Below, in pieces: positions 9,479 to 32,722 of a DNA stretch of 38,440 nt (positions are counted from its first letter, which is position 1; each line of letters starts with the position of its first letter). Location of the stretch: the IMG/VR virus record IMGVR_UViG_2663762939_000006. One strand, written 5' to 3'. This stretch comes from a virus (lineage: Duplodnaviria; Heunggongvirae; Uroviricota; Caudoviricetes). The notes beneath the pieces were generated by a model. The model had not been told where the DNA came from and did no database searches. It saw only the letters and a program-made list of their open reading frames with translations. A program made the translations under genes and the position numbers.

Positions 9479-12400
9479 CAGCGGTACTCCTTACGTTGTT
9501 TCTGAGCCAGCAGACGCTCCAGCATTTTTTCCAGCTCATGCAGACTCATATTCAGGGCACCAGTCAGTCCTGCAGGCGCTGTGGTTTCCCTGCCATTGAG
9601 GAAAAACTGAGGATTAAAGCTGACCTGGATACCACCAGACGTTCCACCGCCGGTTGCAGCTGCACCACGGCCTGAATATCCGGCAGCCATGATTTCAGGC
9701 GAGGGGATACGGGGAACATCCGGTGTCATCTCATTTGCCAGACGTTGCCCTGGTAAAATCGATGCCCGGGTGGAGAGCGGGATAGCGGGCATGGAAGACA
9801 AACTATTGATTACGGCTCCGATCGCATTTTTAGCAGACGACATAAACCCATTGATATCGGGCAACGGCATACTGAAGCGAACACCTGAAGTGTTATCCCG
9901 TATTTCTGGCCCCTGAATGCTCACGGGCATTCTGGGGAGCAGTTCACTGGCCATTCGCTGCCCGGCCAGAGCTGCAAGCGGAGTGGTCCGCTGCAGGCCA
10001 ATGGCGGCCCCCTGCGCGATATTGTCACCAAAGCCCATAAACACGCGGCTCGGCGAATGAATGCCCAGCTTTTCGCTGAACCAGCCACTGATGCTGTCGC
10101 CCATTCCGGTTACACTGGATTTGAGCGACTCCCATTTGTTTTTGATACCGTTAATCAGACCGTCGACAAGATGGCCACCGAAGTCGGTGAACTTTGCCGG
10201 CAGATCAACACCAAGATATTTCAGCGCAGCTGCAAAGGCTTTATAGAGCAGACCTGCCGGCGACCAGTTAATCAGCAGCTTACCAGTTCCCGCGATACCG
10301 CCGTTAAAGGCTTCCTGAATGTCAGCCCAGCACTGTTTAAACCAGCTACTGATGCTGTCACCCATTCCGGTTACACTGGATTTGAGCGACCCCCATTTGT
10401 TTTTGATACCGTTAATCAGACCGTCGATAAGATGGCCACCGAAGTCGGTGAACTTTGCCGGCAGAGCAACGCCGAAATATTTCAGCGCAGCCGCAAAGGC
10501 TTTATAGAGCAGGCCTGCCGGCGACCAGTTAATCAGCAACTTACCAATTCCCACAATGCCGCCGTTAAAGGCTTCCTGAATGTCAGCCCAGCGCTGTTTA
10601 AACCAGCTACTGATGCTGTCACCCATTCCGGTTACACTGGATTTGAGCGACCCCCATTTGCTTTTGATACCGTTAATCAGACCGTCGATAAGATGGCCAC
10701 CGAAGTCGGTGAACTTTGCCGGCAGAGCAACGCCGAAATATTTCAGCGCAGCCGCAAAGGCTTTATAGAGCAGGCCTGCCGGCGACCAGTTAATCAGCAA
10801 CTTACCAATTCCCACAATGCCGCCGTTAAAGGCTTCCTGAATGTCAGCCCAGCGCTGTTTAAACCAACCACTGACAGCCCCCCAGTTGCGGTAGATAAGG
10901 TAAGCTGCTGTCGCGACAGCGGTGATAACGAGACCGATGGGATTCATCATCAGCGCTCGCCCAATCCAGAGAACGGCACGTGCAGCGCTCATAAAACCGC
11001 GAACGAGGCTGCCCGCCAGAACTTTGCTGAGTTTCAGTCCTCCGCTGGTCAGTCGGCTGAATCCAGTGACAAGCCAGCGTAATTTGCCACCTTCTCCGAG
11101 TGCGGTAGTCAGTCGATGCCAGTTGGTCCGGAGTAAAACAGTAGTTTTCCAGACGTTCACAAAGGGGGAAATAAGGAGATTCAGCCCCAGTTTGAGACCA
11201 ACAGTCGCTATCTTAATCGCAAGGAGCGCACTGATGAGCTTAAAAGCCCCACTGACAAATTGCGGGTGAGTCGCTACCCAGTGTTTTGTCCCCTGAATGA
11301 GTGGGAGCAGTTCCTGAGTCAGAGAAATAAAAGATGGAGCTAATTGATCGCCCAGCGTAATTGCCAGATCGCGACTGCTGACCATAAGTGTTTTAGTGGC
11401 TTCAAGGGGAGATTTCAGCCGCTGATCATAAGCACTGGCAAGCAAATCGTTATCCGCAGCCCTGAGAGCACCGGCACGGATCTCTCGATATCTGTCCATG
11501 TTGGCCAGCATCGGGCGGATAAATGCCATGACCTGCATATCCGCGAACATATCGCCCAGACCAAAGTTTTTCGCCAGAGCCTGAAGTGCCTCATCTCTTG
11601 CCGTATCATTCTTTATTTTCATGGCTGATTTGAAGCCGGCCAGCGCTTCGGGGCTTTTGGCATTGAGGTAACGTTCTATAACACTCAACATCCCTTCAAT
11701 CGGAGAGATCCCCGCAGCTTTATAACTCGCAATAGATCCCTGCAAATCAATACCCAGATCAGCAAACTGTTTCTGAGTATCGCGGGCAAAAATTTTGGTA
11801 AGAAAGTTTTTAAAATTATTGGCTGCTTCGTCGGTGGAACCTGCACCGATTTTTGCTATCTGGAGACTGGCCCCGATTTCAGCAACAGCCTCTTTTCCAC
11901 TGGCAAGACCCGCCATCATTGGGGCCAGGGACTGCATCCACTTGACCTGATCCGGGATTTCAAATGACCCCTGGTCACCGGCATAAGCCATAATATTCTG
12001 AACGGCACCAAAATCTCTGGCCGCACCTTTCAGGGAGTTTTGCCAGACTGCGGCCACTTTTGCCCAGTCCTGAGCAGACGTGCGTGTTGCCGTTGCCGCG
12101 CGGGCAATATCCGGCATCAGAAAACCGATATCTGACACATTATCAATATTGTCGCTGATGAGTGAACCCACCGCCTCCTGCAGCTCATCCTGATACTGAT
12201 TGTATTTAAGCGCCCAGCCTTTTATCTGTCCGGCAAGTGCATCCCGCGTTTTATTGTCATATTTTGCGGTGATCGACATATCAATCATTTTGTCCTGAAA
12301 AGACATGGACTGCTGAACGGCAGGGGAAACCGTATGATAAACAGTCTGTGCCATGCCATACGCTTCAATCCCCTGACCATACAGCGCCATGCGGTTAGCT

Positions 12401-16218: not shown

Positions 16219-16664
16219 CAGTATTTCTCCAGTAAACCGTCACGACCGCCGAAAGTGGCCGGGCGACTGCGTACACGAAACTCGCCAGGCTCAGGCACAT
16301 CTTTCTGAGTGGACGGCAGCCCCAGCGTGAGCCTGTTATCACGTAACTCCCTGAGTTGCCGCAGCGCTTCTTTGTGGTCATCCTTCACCGTATCCGGGAG
16401 GTCACCTTCCGGGCGGCGGGCGTAGAGCCGGTAACGGACCAGCGTGATGGCAATGTCCCGCAGAACAGTCGGTATCTCTGCCAGTGGCAGGATATAGCGT
16501 CCGCGCAGATGGGCATCAATCAGCTCGTCGGCATAGCGGATACAGCTGTCCACCACACGGGTATTCACTGTTGCAGGCGAGTCGAAGTCCATCTCTTCAC
16601 TGGTGAGTTCGATAAGCGTCCGCTCCGGCACCTGCGCAAGCAAATCCTCCAGGGTGCAGTACAT
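16218..16664 (-). CDS. head-tail connector-region protein (Mu gp36-like)
   Basis: ATG at 16662-16664 two nt after upstream stop; the longer 202-aa ORF would overlap the preceding gene by 160 nt. Confidence 0.5.
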   Translation of the reverse strand: MYCTLEDLLAQVPERTLIELTSEEMDFDSPATVNTRVVDSCIRYADELIDAHLRGRYILPLAEIPTVLRDIAITLVRYRLYARRPEGDLPDTVKDDHKEALRQLRELRDNRLTLGLPSTQKDVPEPGEFRVRSRPATFGGRDGLLEKY

Positions 16665-16665
16665 G

Positions 16666-17004
16666 TCACACCCCGCGCAGGATACGAATGACGTCGCCTT
16701 CACCCCCGGCTTCATCAAGTGCAATACCACAGGATTTACCGTCGCCGGACTGCGGCACGGCTCTGGCCTGAGCATCTGACTGAACAGCCACACCACGGCT
16801 GACAGCGGCCCCGGCCTCGACAGCAATAATGCCCAGAACGCTCACCGGCGTGCTGTCGCCGGTAACAGCATCCACTTCGGCAACCCCGAGCGCTGCGGCA
16901 CCGGCTTTACAGGGGGTATTATCTGCCCCGACAAAACGCTGCTGTGCCAGTGCTGCCCCTGCCGTTACGGTTGTGATCAGAATGACCTGCTGAGTGGTTC
17001 CCAT
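16666..17004 (-). CDS. small Ala/Gly/Val-rich virion protein (Mu gp35-like position)
   Basis: ATG at 17002-17004 with strong SD AAGGAG; directly after major head gene. Confidence 0.5.
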   Translation of the reverse strand: MGTTQQVILITTVTAGAALAQQRFVGADNTPCKAGAAALGVAEVDAVTGDSTPVSVLGIIAVEAGAAVSRGVAVQSDAQARAVPQSGDGKSCGIALDEAGGEGDVIRILRGV

Positions 17005-28157: not shown

Positions 28158-28922
28158 ATGAAAATGCAGACATTACCCATCGTTCCATGGATTGGTGGCA
28201 AACGCCGCCTTGCAAAACACATTCTGCCGCTGTTTCCGGCGCATGAATGTTATGTGGAGCCGTTTTGTGGGGCAGCAGCGCTCTATTTTCTTAAGACACC
28301 CGGCAAGATCGAAGTCATTAATGATATCAACGGTGAACTGGTGAATCTGTACCGGGTGGTAAAGCATCACCTGGAAGAATTTGTCCGCCAGTTCAAATGG
28401 GCGCTGGTCAGCCGTCAGATCTACAAATGGCTGCAGATCACCCCGGAAGAAACACTGACGGATATCCAGCGTGCGGCACGGTTCTACTACCTTCAGAAGC
28501 AGGCGTTTGGCGGCAAGGTGGCAGAGCACAGCTTCGGTACCTCCACCACATCCCCGCCACGCTTCAACCTGCTGCGTATTGAAGAAGAACTGTCAACAGC
28601 ACACCTGCGGCTTTCCAGAACAGTCATAGAACACATGGACTGGCAACAGTGCATTGAGCGTTATGATCGTCCGCACACACTGTTCTACTGCGACCCACCG
28701 TACCTGGGTACGGAAGGCTATGGTGTGGATTTTCCTGAAGGGAACTACTCGCGGCTGGCAGAGCTGGCCCGGTGCATCAGAGGAAAAATGATAATTTCGG
28801 TGAACGATATCCCACAGATGCGCGAGGTGTTCACTGGACTGAACATACAGACAGTGAACATCAACTACAGTCTGGCGGGGAAATCCACGCCGCGCCGTGA
28901 ACTGGTAATCTGCAACTTCTGA
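28158..28922 (+). CDS. DNA N6-adenine methyltransferase (Dam-like, D12 class)
   Basis: N-terminal ..KRRLAKHILPLFPAHECYVEPFCGAAALYF.. and catalytic DPPY motif (YCDPPYLGTEGYG). Confidence 0.85.
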   Translation: MKMQTLPIVPWIGGKRRLAKHILPLFPAHECYVEPFCGAAALYFLKTPGKIEVINDINGELVNLYRVVKHHLEEFVRQFKWALVSRQIYKWLQITPEETLTDIQRAARFYYLQKQAFGGKVAEHSFGTSTTSPPRFNLLRIEEELSTAHLRLSRTVIEHMDWQQCIERYDRPHTLFYCDPPYLGTEGYGVDFPEGNYSRLAELARCIRGKMIISVNDIPQMREVFTGLNIQTVNINYSLAGKSTPRRELVICNF

Positions 28923-28952
28923 AACAAAACCGGAAAGCACAATGCTTTCCGG
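28922..28952 (-). terminator. rho-independent terminator downstream of the repressor gene
   Basis: 9-bp GC-rich stem CCGGAAAGC/GCTTTCCGG with 5-nt loop, followed on the minus strand by TTTTGTTT. Confidence 0.6.
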
Positions 28953-29038
28953 TAAACCAAACAACTTCCACTATGTCACTGGCGATGTTTTCTGAAAGCA
29001 TCCAGATCAACCACCTGTCCTTTGTGTCCAGGTCAAAA

Positions 29039-29377
29039 TCAGCCTGCGAGTTTGCTTGGTTTGGGTTGAATGAAGACTTTGCCGACCTCAAGAATTGCCC
29101 TCCGTTGTTCGGGGCTCATTTCGTCGAATGCATCCATTAACTCTTTCTTTTCTTGTGACACATAAGGTGCAACAACAGGCTGACTCCGCACCCCAGTAAC
29201 TACATACAAAATATCTACACCGATTTCTGATAGTGCAGATAACTGCACTGCAGTAGGAGAAGTGCGATCTTTTTCCCAATCAATGAAAGTTCTCTTTGCC
29301 ACACCTATAGCATCAGCCAACCCTTGCTGTGTAAGAGATAGACGCTCTCTTTCTTCTTTAATACGTAACCCGATCAT
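29039..29377 (-). CDS. XRE-family HTH repressor (immunity repressor candidate); start ambiguous (29377, 29452/29455 or 29530)
   Basis: MIGLRIKEERERLSLTQQGLADAIGVAKRTFIDWEKDRTSP is a classic XRE helix-turn-helix; divergent from the Ner-like gene. Confidence 0.7.
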   Translation of the reverse strand: MIGLRIKEERERLSLTQQGLADAIGVAKRTFIDWEKDRTSPTAVQLSALSEIGVDILYVVTGVRSQPVVAPYVSQEKKELMDAFDEMSPEQRRAILEVGKVFIQPKPSKLAG

Positions 29378-29401
29378 GTGAGTTTTTCTGCACTCTTTAA
29401 G

Positions 29402-29430
29402 TTGACTGGTGAGGTAATCTGCACCATAAT
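29402..29430 (+). promoter_or_regulatory. sigma70-type early promoter (-35 TTGACT, 17-bp spacer, -10 CATAAT) with overlapping imperfect palindrome
   Basis: Near-consensus hexamers 48 bp upstream of the Ner-like ATG; TGGTGAG-N6-TGCACCA palindrome spans the spacer. Confidence 0.6.
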
Positions 29431-29477
29431 CTATCACACATAAGGCAAACATCATTGCATCAACAAAGGAGACAACG

Positions 29478-29666
29478 ATGACTGCAGAACAAGTCAAAGC
29501 TCTCTTCCGCCAGCGCGGGATCACTTTCACCCGCTGGGCAGAAGAAAACGGCTACAACCGCAATGAGGTATACCGCGTTCTCAATGGGCAGACCAAAGCC
29601 CGTTACGGTAAATCCCATGAAATCGCCGTGAAGTTGGGGCTGAAATCAACAGCTCAGGCAGCCTGA
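29478..29666 (+). CDS. ner: Ner/Nlp-like small DNA-binding regulator
   Basis: SD AAAGGAGA then ATG 29478; ..GYNRNEVYRVLNGQTKARYGKSHEIAVKLGL aligns with Mu Ner ..GYAPTTLANALERHWPKGEQIIANAL as recalled. Confidence 0.6.
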   Translation: MTAEQVKALFRQRGITFTRWAEENGYNRNEVYRVLNGQTKARYGKSHEIAVKLGLKSTAQAA

Positions 29667-29712
29667 AGATTTTGAGTCTTTGTAAAAGGTTATCACATAT
29701 CGCAAAAGAGGT

Positions 29713-30027
29713 ATGCAGATGAGTAAGACGAATGTTTCAAGCTCCGGCAGTCGCATCCTCCGGGTACTCAAAGCGCTGCGCGGTCATGCCCTGAACGGTA
29801 TTTCCAACGGTGAACTGGCGGCAGCACTGCACGAGTCACCGGCAAACATCAACCGGGCACTCAACACCCTCATTGAAGAAGGGTTGGCCCTGAAACTGGA
29901 AAACGGGCGTTTCGCGCCGGGCATCCAGTTACTGCAGATCGCTATGGCCCACAGTAACGAGATGGCACGTGCACAGGATCGCATTAACGAAATCAACCAA
30001 CGTGTCATTTCAGGTAGTCGTTTGTAA
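29713..30027 (+). CDS. small winged-helix DNA-binding protein (IclR/MarR-like HTH)
   Basis: ..ILRVLKALRGHALNGISNGELAAALHESPANINRALNTLIEEGLA.. wHTH pattern; SD AAGAGG. Confidence 0.5.
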   Translation: MQMSKTNVSSSGSRILRVLKALRGHALNGISNGELAAALHESPANINRALNTLIEEGLALKLENGRFAPGIQLLQIAMAHSNEMARAQDRINEINQRVISGSRL

Positions 30028-30037
30028 GGAGTAATAA

Positions 30038-30949
30038 ATGGGACGCACCAAATCACCGATTAACACTGAACTGAACGCCGAGGTACCGCTGTCGGATGAT
30101 CTCAATGTCAGTCTGAACGCCATGACACAGCATCGTATGGAGATCATGCAGCAGTTTGGCGATGGTCAGCCCTATGAGCGTGATCGCATAGTTCATGAGG
30201 CTCGGTTTTATATGGCACAGAGCGCTGAGGCCATGCTGGAAGCAGGTAAACGACTTATTATTCTCAAAGAAAATGAACCTCACGGGGACTTTGTTGGAAT
30301 TGTAGAAGAACAACTTGGTCTGCATGTGCGCGCAGCACAACGAATGATGAAAGCATCTTTGAAATACCTTTCACCAAAACTAGAGCCAAAAGCGACAACG
30401 TTGTCGCTTTTAGGTAAGGCAAAATTATTTGAACTTGTTGCTGAAGATGACGACGACCTTGCTGAACTGGCCGACGGTGGCACAGTTGCCGGACTGACGC
30501 TTGACGATGTTGATCGCATGTCAGTACGTGAATTGCGTCAGGCCCTGCGCGAAGCGCGCGAAACCAACGCAGCACAACAGCGCGTACTCGCCGACAAAAA
30601 TGAAAAAATAGACTCACTCTCCACCAGACTGGAGAAGAAATCCCGTATTCAGCCACCTGAGCCTGATGAAGAGGTGAAGAAACTGCGGGCAGAAGTGACC
30701 GCGTTAGCGGTTGAGGCGGAATCTGCCATCGCCGTTCGACTGTCCAGCGCTTTTGAGACGCTGTGCGCATATTGTGCTGAAAACATGATTGATACCCCCA
30801 GAGACTTCATGGCAGGCCTGGTCTGTCAACTGGAAAGCACAGCGCGTAGCCTGCGCTCCACATTTGACCTGCCGGACGAGCCAACAGGCAATGCAGCGCC
30901 TTCATGGCTGACTGAGCCGACGCCACAGATTAACGGGCTGGAGGCATAA
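30038..30949 (+). CDS. hypothetical early protein (303 aa, coiled-coil-rich)
   Basis: SD AAGGAG, ATG 30038; immediately upstream of transposase. Confidence 0.5.
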   Translation: MGRTKSPINTELNAEVPLSDDLNVSLNAMTQHRMEIMQQFGDGQPYERDRIVHEARFYMAQSAEAMLEAGKRLIILKENEPHGDFVGIVEEQLGLHVRAAQRMMKASLKYLSPKLEPKATTLSLLGKAKLFELVAEDDDDLAELADGGTVAGLTLDDVDRMSVRELRQALREARETNAAQQRVLADKNEKIDSLSTRLEKKSRIQPPEPDEEVKKLRAEVTALAVEAESAIAVRLSSAFETLCAYCAENMIDTPRDFMAGLVCQLESTARSLRSTFDLPDEPTGNAAPSWLTEPTPQINGLEA

Positions 30950-30952
30950 CCA

Positions 30953-32722
30953 ATGAATGCTGCCCTGACTGAACGACTGGTTTATGTCGCCCGCGCGGCA
31001 CGTGACGCGGGGCATGGTAAACGCGGTGCAATATACGACGCTGCCTGTGCTGAACTTGGCATGTCCCGCGCCACTCTGCTGCGCAGGCTGAAGGAGGTCT
31101 CTGTGACTGATAAACGCAAAAAACGCGCCGATGCCGGGCGCAGCGCCCTGACCCGCGACGAAGCCGCGCTGATATCTGCCACACTGCGTGAGGCCACCCG
31201 CAAGAACGGTAAGCGTCTCTATTCCATCGCAGATGCAGTGGAAACCCTGCGGGCTAACGGCTTTATCACCGCAGGCAGAACAGATGAAACCACCGGTGAG
31301 TTTTTCCCGTTGTCCGAAGATGCCATCAGCCGAGCCCTGCGTAACTATGGCCTGCACCCGGAACAACTGGATGCCCCTGCGCCGCATACCGAAGTGGCCA
31401 GTCTGCATCCCAATCATGTCTGGCAGATTGATGCCTCTCTCTGCACGCTTTACTACCTGAGCAATGGACACAAAGGGCTGCAGGTGATGGACAGCGCGAA
31501 GTTCTACAAGAACAAACCCGCTAACCTTGCCCGTATCGCCAGTGACCGCGTGTGGAGTTACGAGATTACCGACCATGCCAGCGGCTGGATTTACGTTGAG
31601 TATGTGACGGGTGCGGAATCCGGTGAGAACCTGTGTTCTGTGCTTATCAACGCCATGCAGGAGCGTGGCGGCGCAGACGTGCTGCACGGCGTGCCAAAAA
31701 TACTCTATCTCGACCCCGGCTCGGCAAACACCGCGGGTATGACGAAAAACATGTGCCACTCACTGGGCATTGACCTGATAGCGCACAAGCCGCATAACGC
31801 CCGCGCCACCGGACAGGTGGAAAAGGCGCGTGACATTATCGAACGCAAGCTGGAGCCGGGTCTGAAGTTCCGGCCGGTTCACAGTCTGGAAGAACTCAAC
31901 GCGCTGGCCGCGAAATGGCGCAGCCACTTTAACGCCACGGCTGTTCACAGCCGCCACGGTAAAACCCGCACGGATATCTGGCTGAAGATTACTGCTGAGC
32001 AGCTGAAAAAAGCGCCTTCCGTTGAGGTATGCCGTGAACTGGCTGTGGCGGCACCAGAACTCCGCAAAGTCACGCCAAAACTTCGTGTCTCGTTCCGGGG
32101 CACTGAATTTGACGTATCAACGGTACCGGGCGTACTGGTTGGTGAAAAACTGATGATTACCCGTAACCCGTGGCGCAGCGATGTGGCACAGGTGGTTCTG
32201 ACCGGTGAGGACGGCCACGAGACGTTCTTCCTGGTCGAAGAGGTCAGAAAGAACGAGTTTGGCTTTGCTGAAGGCGCGGCGGTATTTGGCGAAAGTTACA
32301 AAGCCCTGCCGGAAACCCCGGCGCAGATGGCGGCAAAAGAAACCGAAGCGCTGGTCACCGGTACAGACAACGCCGCAGATGCAGCTGCCGCACGCAAGGC
32401 GAAGGCGCTGCCGTTCGGCGGGCGGCTTGACCCGTATAAACATATCGACGACACCACACTTCCGGCCTATATGCCGAAGCGTGGTCAGGCCTCTGACGTA
32501 CGCGGGCCGCGCACTGAACAACGTCCCATGACTCATGTGGAGGCCGCGAAAGCCCTGCGCGATAAGTTCAGCGCCGACGGCCTTACCTGGACGCCGGAAC
32601 ATTACCGCCAGTTAACGGCACAGTACCCGGACGGCGTACCGGAAGCCGCACTGGATGAAGTCATGGCCACGCTGACCACACCGGCCCGCAGCAGTGTTAT
32701 CAGCATTGTTAACGGCAACTGA
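30953..32722 (+). CDS. DDE transposase (Mu A-like, integrase-core fold)
   Basis: 589 aa; ..HVWQIDAS.. and ..LYLDPGSANT.. acidic-residue blocks consistent with a DDE/rve core; followed by a B-like ATPase. Confidence 0.8.
   Translation: MNAALTERLVYVARAARDAGHGKRGAIYDAACAELGMSRATLLRRLKEVSVTDKRKKRADAGRSALTRDEAALISATLREATRKNGKRLYSIADAVETLRANGFITAGRTDETTGEFFPLSEDAISRALRNYGLHPEQLDAPAPHTEVASLHPNHVWQIDASLCTLYYLSNGHKGLQVMDSAKFYKNKPANLARIASDRVWSYEITDHASGWIYVEYVTGAESGENLCSVLINAMQERGGADVLHGVPKILYLDPGSANTAGMTKNMCHSLGIDLIAHKPHNARATGQVEKARDIIERKLEPGLKFRPVHSLEELNALAAKWRSHFNATAVHSRHGKTRTDIWLKITAEQLKKAPSVEVCRELAVAAPELRKVTPKLRVSFRGTEFDVSTVPGVLVGEKLMITRNPWRSDVAQVVLTGEDGHETFFLVEEVRKNEFGFAEGAAVFGESYKALPETPAQMAAKETEALVTGTDNAADAAAARKAKALPFGGRLDPYKHIDDTTLPAYMPKRGQASDVRGPRTEQRPMTHVEAAKALRDKFSADGLTWTPEHYRQLTAQYPDGVPEAALDEVMATLTTPARSSVISIVNGN

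Follow-up and report, generated by a model that had tools for sequence, protein, structure and literature searches.

A putative immunity switch with a repressor operator in the early-promoter spacer of a B3/BcepMu-type transposable prophage of Escherichia coli

Introduction

In phage Mu, the repressor gene is read leftward and the rightward operon begins with a small regulator, which is followed by the transposase; the region contains three repressor sites, and Pe is overlapped by an operator. Mu Ner and lambda Cro have their binding sites between divergent promoters. The operators of phage P22 are dyads with a 4-bp central spacer. Auxiliary operators that lie in coding DNA or take part in looping include lac O2 in lacZ, gal OI in galE, lambda OL-OR and TP901-1 OD.

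Phage B3 encodes a repressor (ORF18) and a Ner-like protein (ORF17) that are homologous to the protein pair analyzed here. In the B3-like phage Fc02, a promoter termed pC2 that overlaps pE, a distal lysogenic promoter (pC1) and antisense olg genes were reported, and a thermosensitive repc mutant induces transcription of pE/ner (PMC9936078). The B3 genome paper aside, no description of the switch was found in the literature on the operators of BcepMu, B3, D3112 and the E. coli Bcepmuvirus phages.

The DNA analyzed here, called the window, is a 38,440-nt stretch of a Caudoviricetes genome (IMGVR_UViG_2663762939_000006). The gap between its divergent repressor and Ner-like genes (29378-29477) is, judged from the sequence and from relatives, likely the lysis/lysogeny switch of a B3/BcepMu-type transposable E. 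coli prophage, and we infer its functional steps below. The features of the region are listed in Table 1.

Table 1. Coordinates of genes, candidate promoters, candidate operators and other features of the switch region in the window.
Feature	Position	Strand	Description
Terminator-like hairpin	28929..28953	-	stem ACCGGAAAGCA/TGCTTTCCGGT, tail TTTGTTTCAG; 11-bp stem, minus-strand T-run
Immunity repressor gene	29039..29377	-	112 aa; ATG 29377; N-terminal XRE/HTH_3 domain
O3	29233..29248		GTGCAGATAACTGCAC (GTGCAG-ATAA-CTGCAC); perfect 6-4-6 palindrome; candidate auxiliary operator
O2	29378..29393	+	GTGAGTTTTTCTGCAC; candidate operator adjoining the repressor start codon
Pe	29402..29430	+	-35 TTGACT 29402-07; 17-nt spacer 29408-29424; -10 CATAAT 29425-30
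O1	29409..29424	+	GTGAGGTAATCTGCAC; candidate operator; occupies 16 of the 17 Pe spacer positions
Candidate repressor promoter (weak)	29428..29436	-	extended -10 TGnTAGATT; score 5.4; no usable -35
Leader motif	29450..29464	+	CATCATTGCATCAAC; 5' UTR of Ner-like gene; conserved
Shine-Dalgarno sequence of Ner-like gene	29467..29471	+	AGGAG; direct reading; conserved; 6 nt before ATG
Ner-like early regulator gene	29478..29666	+	62 aa; BcepMu gp16 family; first gene of early operon
GTGATA-16-CAAAAT (weak candidate promoter)	29696-29669	-	8/12 positions; score 7.3

Results

The divergent gene pair

An earlier note on this DNA had put about 100 bp between the repressor ATG and the Ner-like ATG, and direct reading gave exactly 100 bp (29378-29477), with CAT at 29375-29377 as the minus-strand ATG of the repressor and the Ner-like ATG at 29478. 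The corresponding gap is 85 bp in B3 and 106 bp in Fc02 (PMC9936078). The repressor contains a Pfam HTH_3 domain at residues 6-51 (E=1.6e-7) and matched B3 ORF18 with 37% identity over 95 aa (BLASTP, E=9e-23). Its C-terminus is a module of about 40 aa that is common to several immunity types and specific to the phage group. The best solved-structure match overall was 8tac_A, 'DBP48' (E=3.8e-5), and P22 C2 was the closest named phage repressor, with the N-terminal domain 1adr matching at E=1.8e-4 and the solved relatives 1adr, 2r1j and 3jxb at E of about 2e-4 to 4e-4. In having an HTH_3-like N-terminal domain, the protein resembles repressors of the lambda CI/P22 C2 type. Unlike P22 C2 and lambda CI, the 112-aa protein has no S24 peptidase, RecA-cleavable C-terminal domain, as no Peptidase_S24 match was found in the domain search. 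Its matches were to HTH_3/XRE families only, and the Mu c family, whose DNA-binding domain is related to MuA, was not encountered. The hairpin downstream of the repressor gene has a stem that is 100% complementary, is identical in PhiKM, and probably marks the 3' end of the repressor transcript.

The product of the rightward gene belongs to TIGR04111 (BcepMu_gp16; 97.4 bits against a cut-off of 34), matches phrog_925 and is 71% identical to B3 ORF17. The name Ner-like, used in the earlier note, is apt with respect to position and size only; the family is TIGR04111, and the score against Pfam HTH_35 (Ner, PF13693) was 17.9 bits, below the gathering score of 25. No PDB relative, Mu Ner included, was found by sequence. 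Genes for a wHTH regulator, a DUF3102 protein and a DDE transposase (Pfam HTH_IclR, DUF3102 and rve) follow in an order shared with B3 and PhiKM. In the window, ner is followed by the wHTH gene with B3 ORF16 and ORF15 missing from between them, and therefore the distal pC1 and the antisense olg genes of Fc02 have no obvious counterpart in it; the weak 8/12 match at 29696-29669 on the minus strand is the single candidate. The E. coli host, the operator sequence and the immunity specificity also differ from those of B3 and Fc02.

Start of the repressor gene

The earlier note had left room for a repressor start at 29452-29530 with a leaderless mRNA, which was not supported; the start is placed at 29377. 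If the repressor began upstream (ATG 29455/29452, TTG 29497, which is the 152-aa RefSeq call, or GTG 29530), its gene would run into the Ner-like gene and the greater part of the gap would be coding DNA. In the window, no stop interrupts the minus-strand frame up to 29530, PGAP annotates 459 nt (WP_224154089.1), and ATG 29377 is not preceded by a Shine-Dalgarno sequence, but the upstream candidates likewise lack one. In PhiKM, a stop shortly before the HTH-proximal ATG closes the homologous ORF, and Mixta L012, which has the same immunity type, has a stop 7 codons upstream of MIGL; the upstream starts and the RefSeq call were rejected because the frame is closed in these two loci. Moreover, the extension lacks protein-level conservation in Klebsiella L020, the HTH_3 domain begins at residue 6 of the 112-aa form, and the N-termini of five immunity types align with that of the 112-aa form within 3 residues. 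An upstream start is very improbable. A leaderless start at ATG 29377 itself was rejected on reading because no -10-like hexamer lies 7-12 nt upstream.

Promoters

The rightward TTGACT-17-CATAAT promoter that had been noted in the gap is present at that place and matches the consensus at 10 of 12 positions. It was the sole match of a promoter scan of 28800-30100 and had the top sigma-70 PWM score on either strand of the whole window (13.7 vs. 10.9 for the next best). Pe is predicted to be the only strong sigma-70 promoter in the window, and its transcription start is predicted near 29436-29438. Relative to the Ner-like ATG, the promoter occupies -76/-53 in each of six heteroimmune variants from E. 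coli, and its distance is the same in most of 80 loci from other genera.

A leftward sigma-70 promoter was sought over 29380-31200 with a promoter tool and the PWM, and nothing scored above 7.3 compared to 13.7 for Pe. The extended -10 candidate for the repressor overlaps the Pe -10 hexamer by 3 bp and is kept in four of the five types scanned, within DNA that is conserved anyway. In locus L004, TGTTAGATT is present in the sequence, yet falls outside the top-scoring minus-strand candidates. Seen from the repressor gene, O2 adjoins the 5' end and O1 lies beyond it, so the repressor transcript would have to start at or beyond O1, which makes negative autoregulation likely.

Candidate operators in the intergenic gap

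Two repeat features had been proposed in the gap, an imperfect palindrome and direct TCTGCAC repeats, and both are present, although neither exceeds chance when taken alone. The palindrome, TGGTGAG (29407-13)-N6-TGCACCA (29420-26), has the right axis, in that its center coincides with the dyad axis of O1 (29416/29417), but only its five outer pairs (TGGTG/CACCA) are perfectly complementary, and 679 of 1000 dinucleotide shuffles of the gap contained an inverted repeat at least as good. The heptamer TCTGCAC is found at 29387-29393 and 29418-29424, and its nine occurrences in the window do not constitute an enrichment over the 6.7 expected. The two heptamers belong to a longer, 16-nt direct repeat and form the ends of its copies, GTGAGTTTTTCTGCAC and GTGAGGTAATCTGCAC, which are identical at 13 of 16 positions and lie 31 bp apart. 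A repeat of this quality was equaled in 12 of 1000 shuffles (p about 0.012). As read from these letters, the candidate operator is a 16-bp GTGAG-N4-TCTGCAC unit, and one pair of sites accounts for both the direct repeats and the palindrome. O2 lies 31 bp, or about three helical turns, upstream of O1.

Exact matches to GTG-N7-CTGCAC numbered five in the window compared to 0.57 expected, and none of 100 shuffles reached five. Three of the four distinct sites fall inside 192 bp (post hoc p about 3e-4); inspection of the data preceded the definition of both the operator pattern and the clustering test. When one mismatch was allowed, 19 sites were found in the window compared to 14.5 expected, which is not an enrichment. 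One more exact match, GTGACATGTACTGCAC at 16654, could be due to chance, given the 0.57 expected.

The repeats and the palindrome could in principle be products of chance in A/T-rich intergenic DNA, with only the promoter being real, as the shuffles that matched or beat the palindrome (68%) and the unenriched heptamer and one-mismatch pattern would allow. The rarity of the 16-nt repeat (1.2% of shuffles) and the number and clustering of the exact matches argue against chance. So do the relatives, in dozens of which the same architecture is built from other sequences. Mixta and Klebsiella retain the type A sites, in which the arms are invariant and the centers vary, a pattern that holds across three diverged lineages; in O2 of L012 and L020, variation is confined to central positions. 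We regard chance as an extremely improbable source of these sites, and O1 and O2 are treated below as candidate repressor operators.

Within their own immunity type, O1 and O2 are poor palindromes (four and three of six arm pairs, respectively), compared to the perfect dyads of most relatives, and they share an asymmetric left arm, GTGAG, which is unexplained by a simple symmetric-dimer model. A weaker equivalent of O2 occurs at -29 to -34 from O1 in about 20 of 37 distinct operator types.

MerR-family operators are dyads between -35 and -10, and the placement of O1 resembles that of a MerR-type activator site, at which the bound protein would activate Pe. However, MerR promoters have over-long spacers of 19-20 bp, whereas Pe has an optimal 17-bp spacer between near-consensus hexamers, and the neighboring regulator is of the XRE/HTH_3 type rather than MerR. 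In Fc02, moreover, inactivating the homologously placed repressor turns pE on (PMC9936078). The probability that the spacer dyad serves activation is negligible, and repression at Pe is the reading retained here.

Comparison with related loci

The comparative set consisted of 86 related loci, of which 77 were usable. A perfect 6-N4-6 dyad was centered in the promoter spacer in 39 of the 77 compared to 0.9% of control positions, and a spacer dyad with at least five of six arm pairs was found in 54 compared to 10% of control positions. In B3, the promoter spacer contains a similar dyad (TTGACA-G-GTGCAATATTTGGCAC-CACTAT). Six E. coli immunity types have different dyads at the same place (GCTCATAATTATGAGC, ATCCCATTTTTGGGAT, GAGAACAATAGTTCTC, ATACACGTTTGTGTAT and others), and the heteroimmune variants carry their own dyads in exactly the register of O1. 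Arm identity was 10.7 of 12 in pairs of loci with similar HTH domains and 3.2 of 12 in unrelated pairs, and the correlation between HTH domain and dyad was reached by none of 300 permutations. It is the HTH domain of the repressor, and not the conserved Ner-like protein, with which the dyad sequence co-varies.

Escherichia phage PhiKM (Bcepmuvirus) and the heteroimmune E. coli prophage variants have flanks nearly identical to those of the window. These flanks include dam and the terminator as well as the leader and coding sequence of the Ner-like gene and the genes that follow it, and the architecture and site positions are also the same in PhiKM (-69, about -99 and one intragenic site), but the HTH domain of the PhiKM repressor, whose gene is unannotated in the PhiKM record, and its operators (GCTCAT-N4-ATGAGC) are wholly different. 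Divergence between the two sequences extends from the repressor gene as far as 29425, and they become identical at ATAATCT; the replaced cassette reaches from the repressor gene up to the Pe -10 hexamer. In several E. coli classes, the match sets in at query position 526/527, corresponding to 29425/29426 of the window. The -10 hexamer is where homology between the heteroimmune E. coli variants is lost.

These data bear on which protein recognizes the dyads. The Ner-like (gp16) protein is a small HTH protein encoded beside the sites and could act as a Cro-like autoregulator in place of the divergent XRE repressor, since Mu Ner and lambda Cro act at such a location. Yet gp16 is 60-90% identical across loci with wholly different dyads, the dyads follow the HTH domain of the repressor, and the homology break in E. 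coli groups O1 and O2 with the repressor while the gp16 gene and leader are on the conserved side. Sharing of sites in the manner of CI and Cro would need gp16 to recognize many different sequences. We consider binding of the dyads by gp16 highly unlikely and assign them to the repressor. The core reading of the earlier note, a compact immunity switch in which a repressor operator overlaps the early promoter, is upheld by this comparison, namely by the constant position of the promoter, the co-variation of the spacer dyad with the repressor HTH domain, and the homology break at the -10 hexamer.

A site within the repressor gene

The earlier note had raised the prospect of operator copies elsewhere in the prophage, and a third and better site, O3, was found outside the interval (29380-29480) that it had delimited for repressor binding. 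O3 occupies codons 44-49 of the repressor gene (VQLSAL, helix 4), 176 bp from O1 and 145 bp from O2. Together with the operators of relatives, it is a 6-N4-6 dyad with a mostly A/T 4-bp center, as in P22. O3 is identical in Mixta L012 and Klebsiella L020, in which the HTH-coding region is 10% and 23% divergent in nucleotide sequence, respectively. Pigmentiphaga L072 and the GAGAAC family have related sites at these codons, and in both cases the intragenic site matches the O1 found in the same locus. Sites with at most two mismatches numbered 20 in 15.8 kb beside O1 compared to 11 in 118.6 kb of control DNA, and the enrichment of auxiliary sites near O1 was about 14-fold overall.

O3 may nevertheless be a by-product of coding for a conserved helix plus chance, with O1 and O2 alone forming the functional switch. 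The site encodes the conserved peptide VQLSAL, and coding constraint accounts for part of its conservation; a silent-site test was weak (P about 0.07 for L020 and 0.25 for L012). O3-like sites are missing or poor in many types, and the distance between O1 and O3 varies from 174 to 261 bp across types, with no constant number of helical turns. Against a by-product, base frequencies predict about 0.01 occurrences per 300 bp of a site that agrees with O1 and O2 at 11 or more of the 13 positions they have in common, an independent site in non-homologous codons of PhiKM matches the PhiKM dyad at 11/12 positions, and the GAGAAC family has its own O3 at homologous codons that encode a different peptide, 175 bp from O1; the enrichment near O1 points the same way. 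We regard the by-product explanation as a real possibility, though not the favored one in our estimate.

It is tentatively suggested, at a similar level of confidence, that B3/BcepMu-type phages share an undescribed three-operator design, with a high-affinity O3 in the repressor coding sequence and looping between O1/O2 and O3. In such a design, O3 would often be located at the helix 4 codons, about 175 bp from the promoter-spacer operator, and the helix 4 coding sequence would have co-evolved with operator specificity (VQLSAL with GTGCAG...CTGCAC vs. G(E/D)VLFS with GAGAAC...GTTCTC). With repressor on both O1/O2 and O3, the 5' half of the repressor gene would be looped out.

Leader of the early operon

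The motif CATCATTGCATCAAC in the leader of the Ner-like gene is a candidate binding site of the gp16/Ner-like protein or a candidate RNA element. The form CATC(A/T)TTGCATCA(A/C) is retained in loci of Enterobacterales, Pseudomonas, Photorhabdus and Xanthomonadales. An Rfam scan of 28800-30200 at E<=1 detected no RNA family. A second copy of TATCACAT was observed at 29685-29712.

Discussion

The comparison of relatives gives good backing to a switch that, as read from its sequence, is of a common phage type. A repressor dimer on O1 would keep RNA polymerase from Pe and thereby hold the early and transposase operon silent in the lysogen. A second dimer would bind cooperatively to O2, which is about three helical turns from O1 and would lie on the same face of the DNA. 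Recognition in the style of P22 C2 and 434 is suggested because the half-sites flank four A/T-rich central base pairs. O3, which fits the symmetric consensus best, may help repression through looping or act as a roadblock in its own gene that limits repressor synthesis. The gp16/Ner-like protein presumably acts on the conserved leader and not on O1-O3.

As in P22 C2 and 434-like systems, adjacent operators overlap a divergent promoter pair, but the 31-bp operator spacing, the site inside the repressor gene and replication by transposition are different. The layout of the Mu c/Ner switch is shared by the window, and both are transposable phages. Unlike Mu, the window has an XRE-type repressor and not a winged helix of the Mu c/MuA-related kind, and short dyad operators in place of large composite ones. 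A Mu-like operator bent by IHF is unsupported because the IHF consensus WATCAANNNNTTR is absent from the switch; its one match in the window is at 9799. The presence of a high-quality operator copy a few hundred base pairs away in a coding region resembles the lac, gal, lambda and TP901-1 systems, although here the auxiliary site is in the repressor's own gene and looping is a proposal.

The mechanistic gain over the classical phage switches is small unless the intragenic operator O3 proves functional. If the three-operator design is true, looping would couple tight repression of the transposase operon to self-limited repressor synthesis. About 11% of the complete genomes of E. coli (623 of 5426), ST131 and ABU 83972 among them, carry a prophage of this family, and the operator and promoter map would allow the immunity type of each prophage to be read straight from its sequence. 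The map also corrects the annotation of the repressor, which is 152 aa in RefSeq and absent from the PhiKM record. The family appears to provide naturally orthogonal pairs of small repressors and 16-bp operators in one conserved promoter scaffold, which may find use as parts for synthetic circuits and in the prediction of superinfection immunity.

Prophage Context

This DNA comes from a Mu-like, transposable prophage of B3/BcepMu type. Over the 1.2 kb that surround the switch it was 100% identical to the chromosomes of numerous E. coli genomes, ABU 83972 and ST131 strains among them, and 623 of the 5426 complete E. coli genomes contained a relative. The nearest isolated phage was Escherichia phage PhiKM (genus Bcepmuvirus). 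The leftward repressor was 37% identical to ORF18 of phage B3 (E = 9e-23), which is annotated as P22 c2-like, and the rightward Ner-like protein was 71% identical to B3 ORF17. Genes for an IclR-like winged-helix protein, a DUF3102 protein and a DDE transposase follow the Ner-like gene in that order. In Fc02, a phage of the B3 family, the repressor gene occupies the homologous position, and a thermosensitive mutation in it activated pE transcription into ner (PMC9936078).

Features in and around the switch, with window coordinates
Feature	Position	Strand	Remarks
Match to GTG-N7-CTGCAC	16654-16669	-	GTGACATGTACTGCAC; structural-gene part of prophage
Dam-type methylase gene	28158-28922	+
Hairpin terminator	28929-28953		Serves leftward transcripts
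Repressor gene	29039-29377	-	112-aa XRE/HTH_3 protein
C-terminal module	29042-29170	-	Repressor residues ~70-112
Candidate operator O3	29233-29248		GTGCAGATAACTGCAC; within repressor gene
Candidate operator O2	29378-29393		GTGAGTTTTTCTGCAC; at repressor ATG
Pe, -35 hexamer	29402-29407	+	TTGACT
Candidate operator O1	29409-29424		GTGAGGTAATCTGCAC; in promoter spacer of Pe
Pe, -10 hexamer	29425-29430	+	CATAAT
Weak leftward promoter candidate	29436-29428	-	Extended -10 TGnTAGATT; overlaps Pe -10
TATCACAyATAnnGCAAA, first copy	29432-29448		At predicted Pe start
Leader motif	29450-29464		CATCATTGCATCAAC; 14-28 nt upstream of Ner-like ATG
Predicted early leader	29436-29520	+	Folded segment
Shine-Dalgarno AGGAGA	29467-29472	+	Predicted to pair with UCUCUU
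UCUCUU	29501-29506	+	Inside Ner-like gene
Ner-like gene	29478-29666	+	62 aa; BcepMu gp16 family; TIGR04111 97 bits vs. cut-off 34
Weak leftward promoter candidate	29696-29669	-	8/12 match; gap after Ner-like gene
TATCACAyATAnnGCAAA, second copy	29691-29707		TTATCACATAT; 46-bp gap between Ner-like and IclR-like genes

Predicted Early Promoter and Candidate Operators

All of the sequence strings quoted in an earlier note on this DNA were located by direct reading, and its estimate of about 100 bp between the repressor and Ner-like genes was borne out, with exactly 100 bp between the two ATGs. The near-consensus rightward early promoter that it described, Pe, has a 17-nt spacer and matches the consensus at 10/12 positions. 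Pe was the only promoter-scan match within 28800-30100 and, by position-weight scan of both strands, the top sigma-70 site of the whole 38-kb window (13.7 vs. 10.9 for the next site).

The palindrome TGGTGAG-N6-TGCACCA, previously proposed as the operator, is present and shares its dyad axis with O1, but its five complementary outer pairs are not beyond chance: when the gap was dinucleotide-shuffled, 68% of the shuffled sequences gave an equal or better palindrome. The direct TCTGCAC repeats are also present, but TCTGCAC alone was not enriched. Palindrome and repeats are parts of one 16-nt unit, of which O2 and O1 are two direct copies at a spacing of 31 bp (13/16 identical); a 16-nt direct repeat this good was found in only 1.2% of shuffles. 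A third copy, O3, is a perfect 6-4-6 palindrome within the repressor gene. The pattern GTG-N7-CTGCAC, which was set after the data had been seen, had five exact matches in the window vs. 0.57 expected, and three of its four distinct sites fell within 192 bp (p about 3e-4). Its sole other exact match is compatible with chance given the same expectation. O1 and O2 are poor palindromes in this immunity type (4/6 and 3/6 arm pairs) and O3 is perfectly symmetric. The asymmetric left arm GTGAG is common to O1 and O2 and is kept in three genera, a deviation left unaccounted for by a simple symmetric-dimer model.

Heteroimmune Variants and Co-variation

On the left, the window aligns almost identically with PhiKM until the repressor gene's 3' end. 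Across the part coding for the HTH and the leftmost two thirds of the gap the two are unrelated, and identity resumes exactly at ATAATCT, within the -10 hexamer. In further E. coli classes the match likewise began at 29425/29426. This break in homology implies an exchangeable immunity cassette of repressor gene, O2, -35 hexamer and O1; by the same alignments, the -10 hexamer, leader and Ner-like gene are the common part outside it. In each of six E. coli immunity types the promoter was at -76/-53 from the Ner-like ATG and a different dyad filled its spacer in the same register: GCTCATAATTATGAGC (PhiKM type), ATCCCATTTTTGGGAT, (T)GAGAACAATAGTTCTC(A), ATACACGTTTGTGTAT, ACACAC...GTGTGT and the window's own type. 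In a further E. coli variant, MS20655 (L009 1211-1931), the repressor and also the Ner-like gene are replaced by an unrelated 74-aa ORF; it retains a TTGACA-16-TACAAT promoter, identified by reading, with an ACACAC...GTGTGT dyad in the spacer.

When GTDB species genomes were scanned once with the Ner-like protein as query, 80 loci were obtained, spanning Enterobacterales to Pseudomonas, Pasteurellaceae, Xanthomonadales and Betaproteobacteria. Among 77 loci with a usable promoter prediction, a perfect 6-N4-6 dyad was centered in the spacer at 39 (0.9% at control positions), and at least 5/6 arm pairs were found at 54 (10% at control positions). Phage B3 itself conforms to this layout. The layout was conserved, and the dyad arms co-varied with the repressor HTH: dyads were alike at 10.7 of 12 arm positions in locus pairs with similar HTH domains vs. 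3.2 in dissimilar pairs, and none of 300 permutations matched the correlation with the repressor N-terminal domain. The Ner-like protein was conserved throughout. The sites therefore belong to the repressor and not to gp16. The window's immunity type was also found in Mixta mediterraneensis and a Klebsiella species, there with its HTH attached to another C-terminal domain; the offsets of O1, O2 and O3 were the same, the arms unchanged, and variation was confined to central positions.

Repressor Protein

The earlier note left open a repressor start at 29452-29530, and RefSeq WP_224154089.1 starts at TTG 29497 (152 aa, with a 20-nt overlap with the Ner-like gene). The comparative data favor the 112-aa form beginning at ATG 29377. 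In PhiKM a stop directly upstream of the HTH-proximal ATG closes the homologous ORF; in Mixta, a carrier of the same immunity type, the stop is seven codons upstream of the start; and in Klebsiella the upstream extension is not conserved as protein. The short form has its HTH domain from residue 6, and the N-termini of five immunity types align at this start. The repressor start is accordingly assigned to ATG 29377. The proposed leaderless repressor mRNA overlapping the ner leader falls with the upstream starts on which it depended. In the PhiKM GenBank record the 118-aa repressor gene (L001 3140-3496) is unannotated and a 41-aa ORF is called on the opposite strand.

Among solved relatives, the DNA-binding domain of P22 C2 was the closest named phage repressor to the N-terminal domain (E about 2e-4). 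A domain search detected no S24 peptidase domain in the repressor, making RecA-stimulated self-cleavage unlikely. The C-terminal module (consensus S.EKQ.LMDAFD.MSPEQRR..LEVG....QPKP.K.AG) was common to four immunity types with differing HTH domains, and in the Klebsiella locus L020 the HTH of the window type precedes an unrelated C-terminus; the repressor is thus modular. Dimerization, antirepressor targeting and protease targeting are possible roles of the tail.

Auxiliary Sites

About 20 of 37 distinct operator types had a weaker dyad copy 29-34 bp upstream of O1, mostly overlapping or abutting the repressor start codon, and about a dozen had additional copies inside the repressor gene, 174-261 bp upstream of O1. 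Within these loci, sites with at most two arm mismatches numbered 20 in the 15.8 kb beside O1 vs. 11 in 118.6 kb of DNA away from it. The intragenic site of PhiKM, GCTCATTCCAGTGAGC (11/12 match), lies at codons for LLTGMS; in the window type and a Pigmentiphaga relative O3 lies at the VQLSAL codons of helix 4, and the GAGAAC family, which is unrelated, carries an O3 of its own at homologous codons (G[E/D]VLFS), likewise 175 bp from O1. These observations argue that O3 is selected and more than a coding by-product. The case is incomplete, since a silent-site test (window, Mixta, Klebsiella) was weak, O1-O3 distances vary among types and many types have no O3.

Early Leader

The leader motif, consensus CATC(A/T)TTGCATCA(A/C), was kept in Enterobacterales, Pseudomonas, Photorhabdus and Xanthomonadales loci with variable adjacent bases, and may be a gp16 binding site or an RNA signal. 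TATCACAyATAnnGCAAA had only two copies in the window (0.10 expected), the second strongly conserved in enterics, Photorhabdus, Xenorhabdus and Dickeya. The predicted leader folds with an MFE of -19.4 kcal/mol (z = -2.6; as good in 1/200 shuffles), and the modeled Shine-Dalgarno pairing could damp translation.

Proposed Mechanism and Related Switches

By its layout the element would operate in the manner of classical phage switches with divergent repressor and early promoter. A repressor dimer bound at O1 would cover 16 of the 17 Pe spacer base pairs and keep RNA polymerase out, O2, three helical turns away, would supply a cooperative partner, and O3 may aid by looping or brake repressor synthesis. 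Because O2 lies at the repressor gene's 5' end, repressor mRNA must begin at or beyond O1, and negative autoregulation would be expected. Promoter-tool and position-weight scans gave no convincing leftward repressor promoter, the best candidates being weak, and no Shine-Dalgarno sequence was found ahead of ATG 29377. In Fc02 the lysogenic repressor transcript was reported from a distal promoter, antisense through ner (PMC9936078). The genes hosting that promoter in B3 are absent from the window.

The earlier identification of the switch is solid and correct, with its details refined. The switch clearly belongs to the B3/BcepMu regulatory module: it has a gp16-family protein, a repressor of ORF18 type, the short gap and the same downstream synteny. 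Strictly speaking, it is no Mu-type c/Ner switch; it differs in repressor family and in Pfam Ner membership, and a consensus search found no IHF site in the switch region. Lacking an S24 domain, the repressor is not a full lambda/P22 CI-type repressor. The 4-bp, mostly A/T dyad centers recall P22/434-type recognition. Searches of the accessible literature gave no description of the E. coli switch or its operators. The switch is of modest interest within a known class; the recurrent intragenic operator is the sole aspect that might repay experiments.
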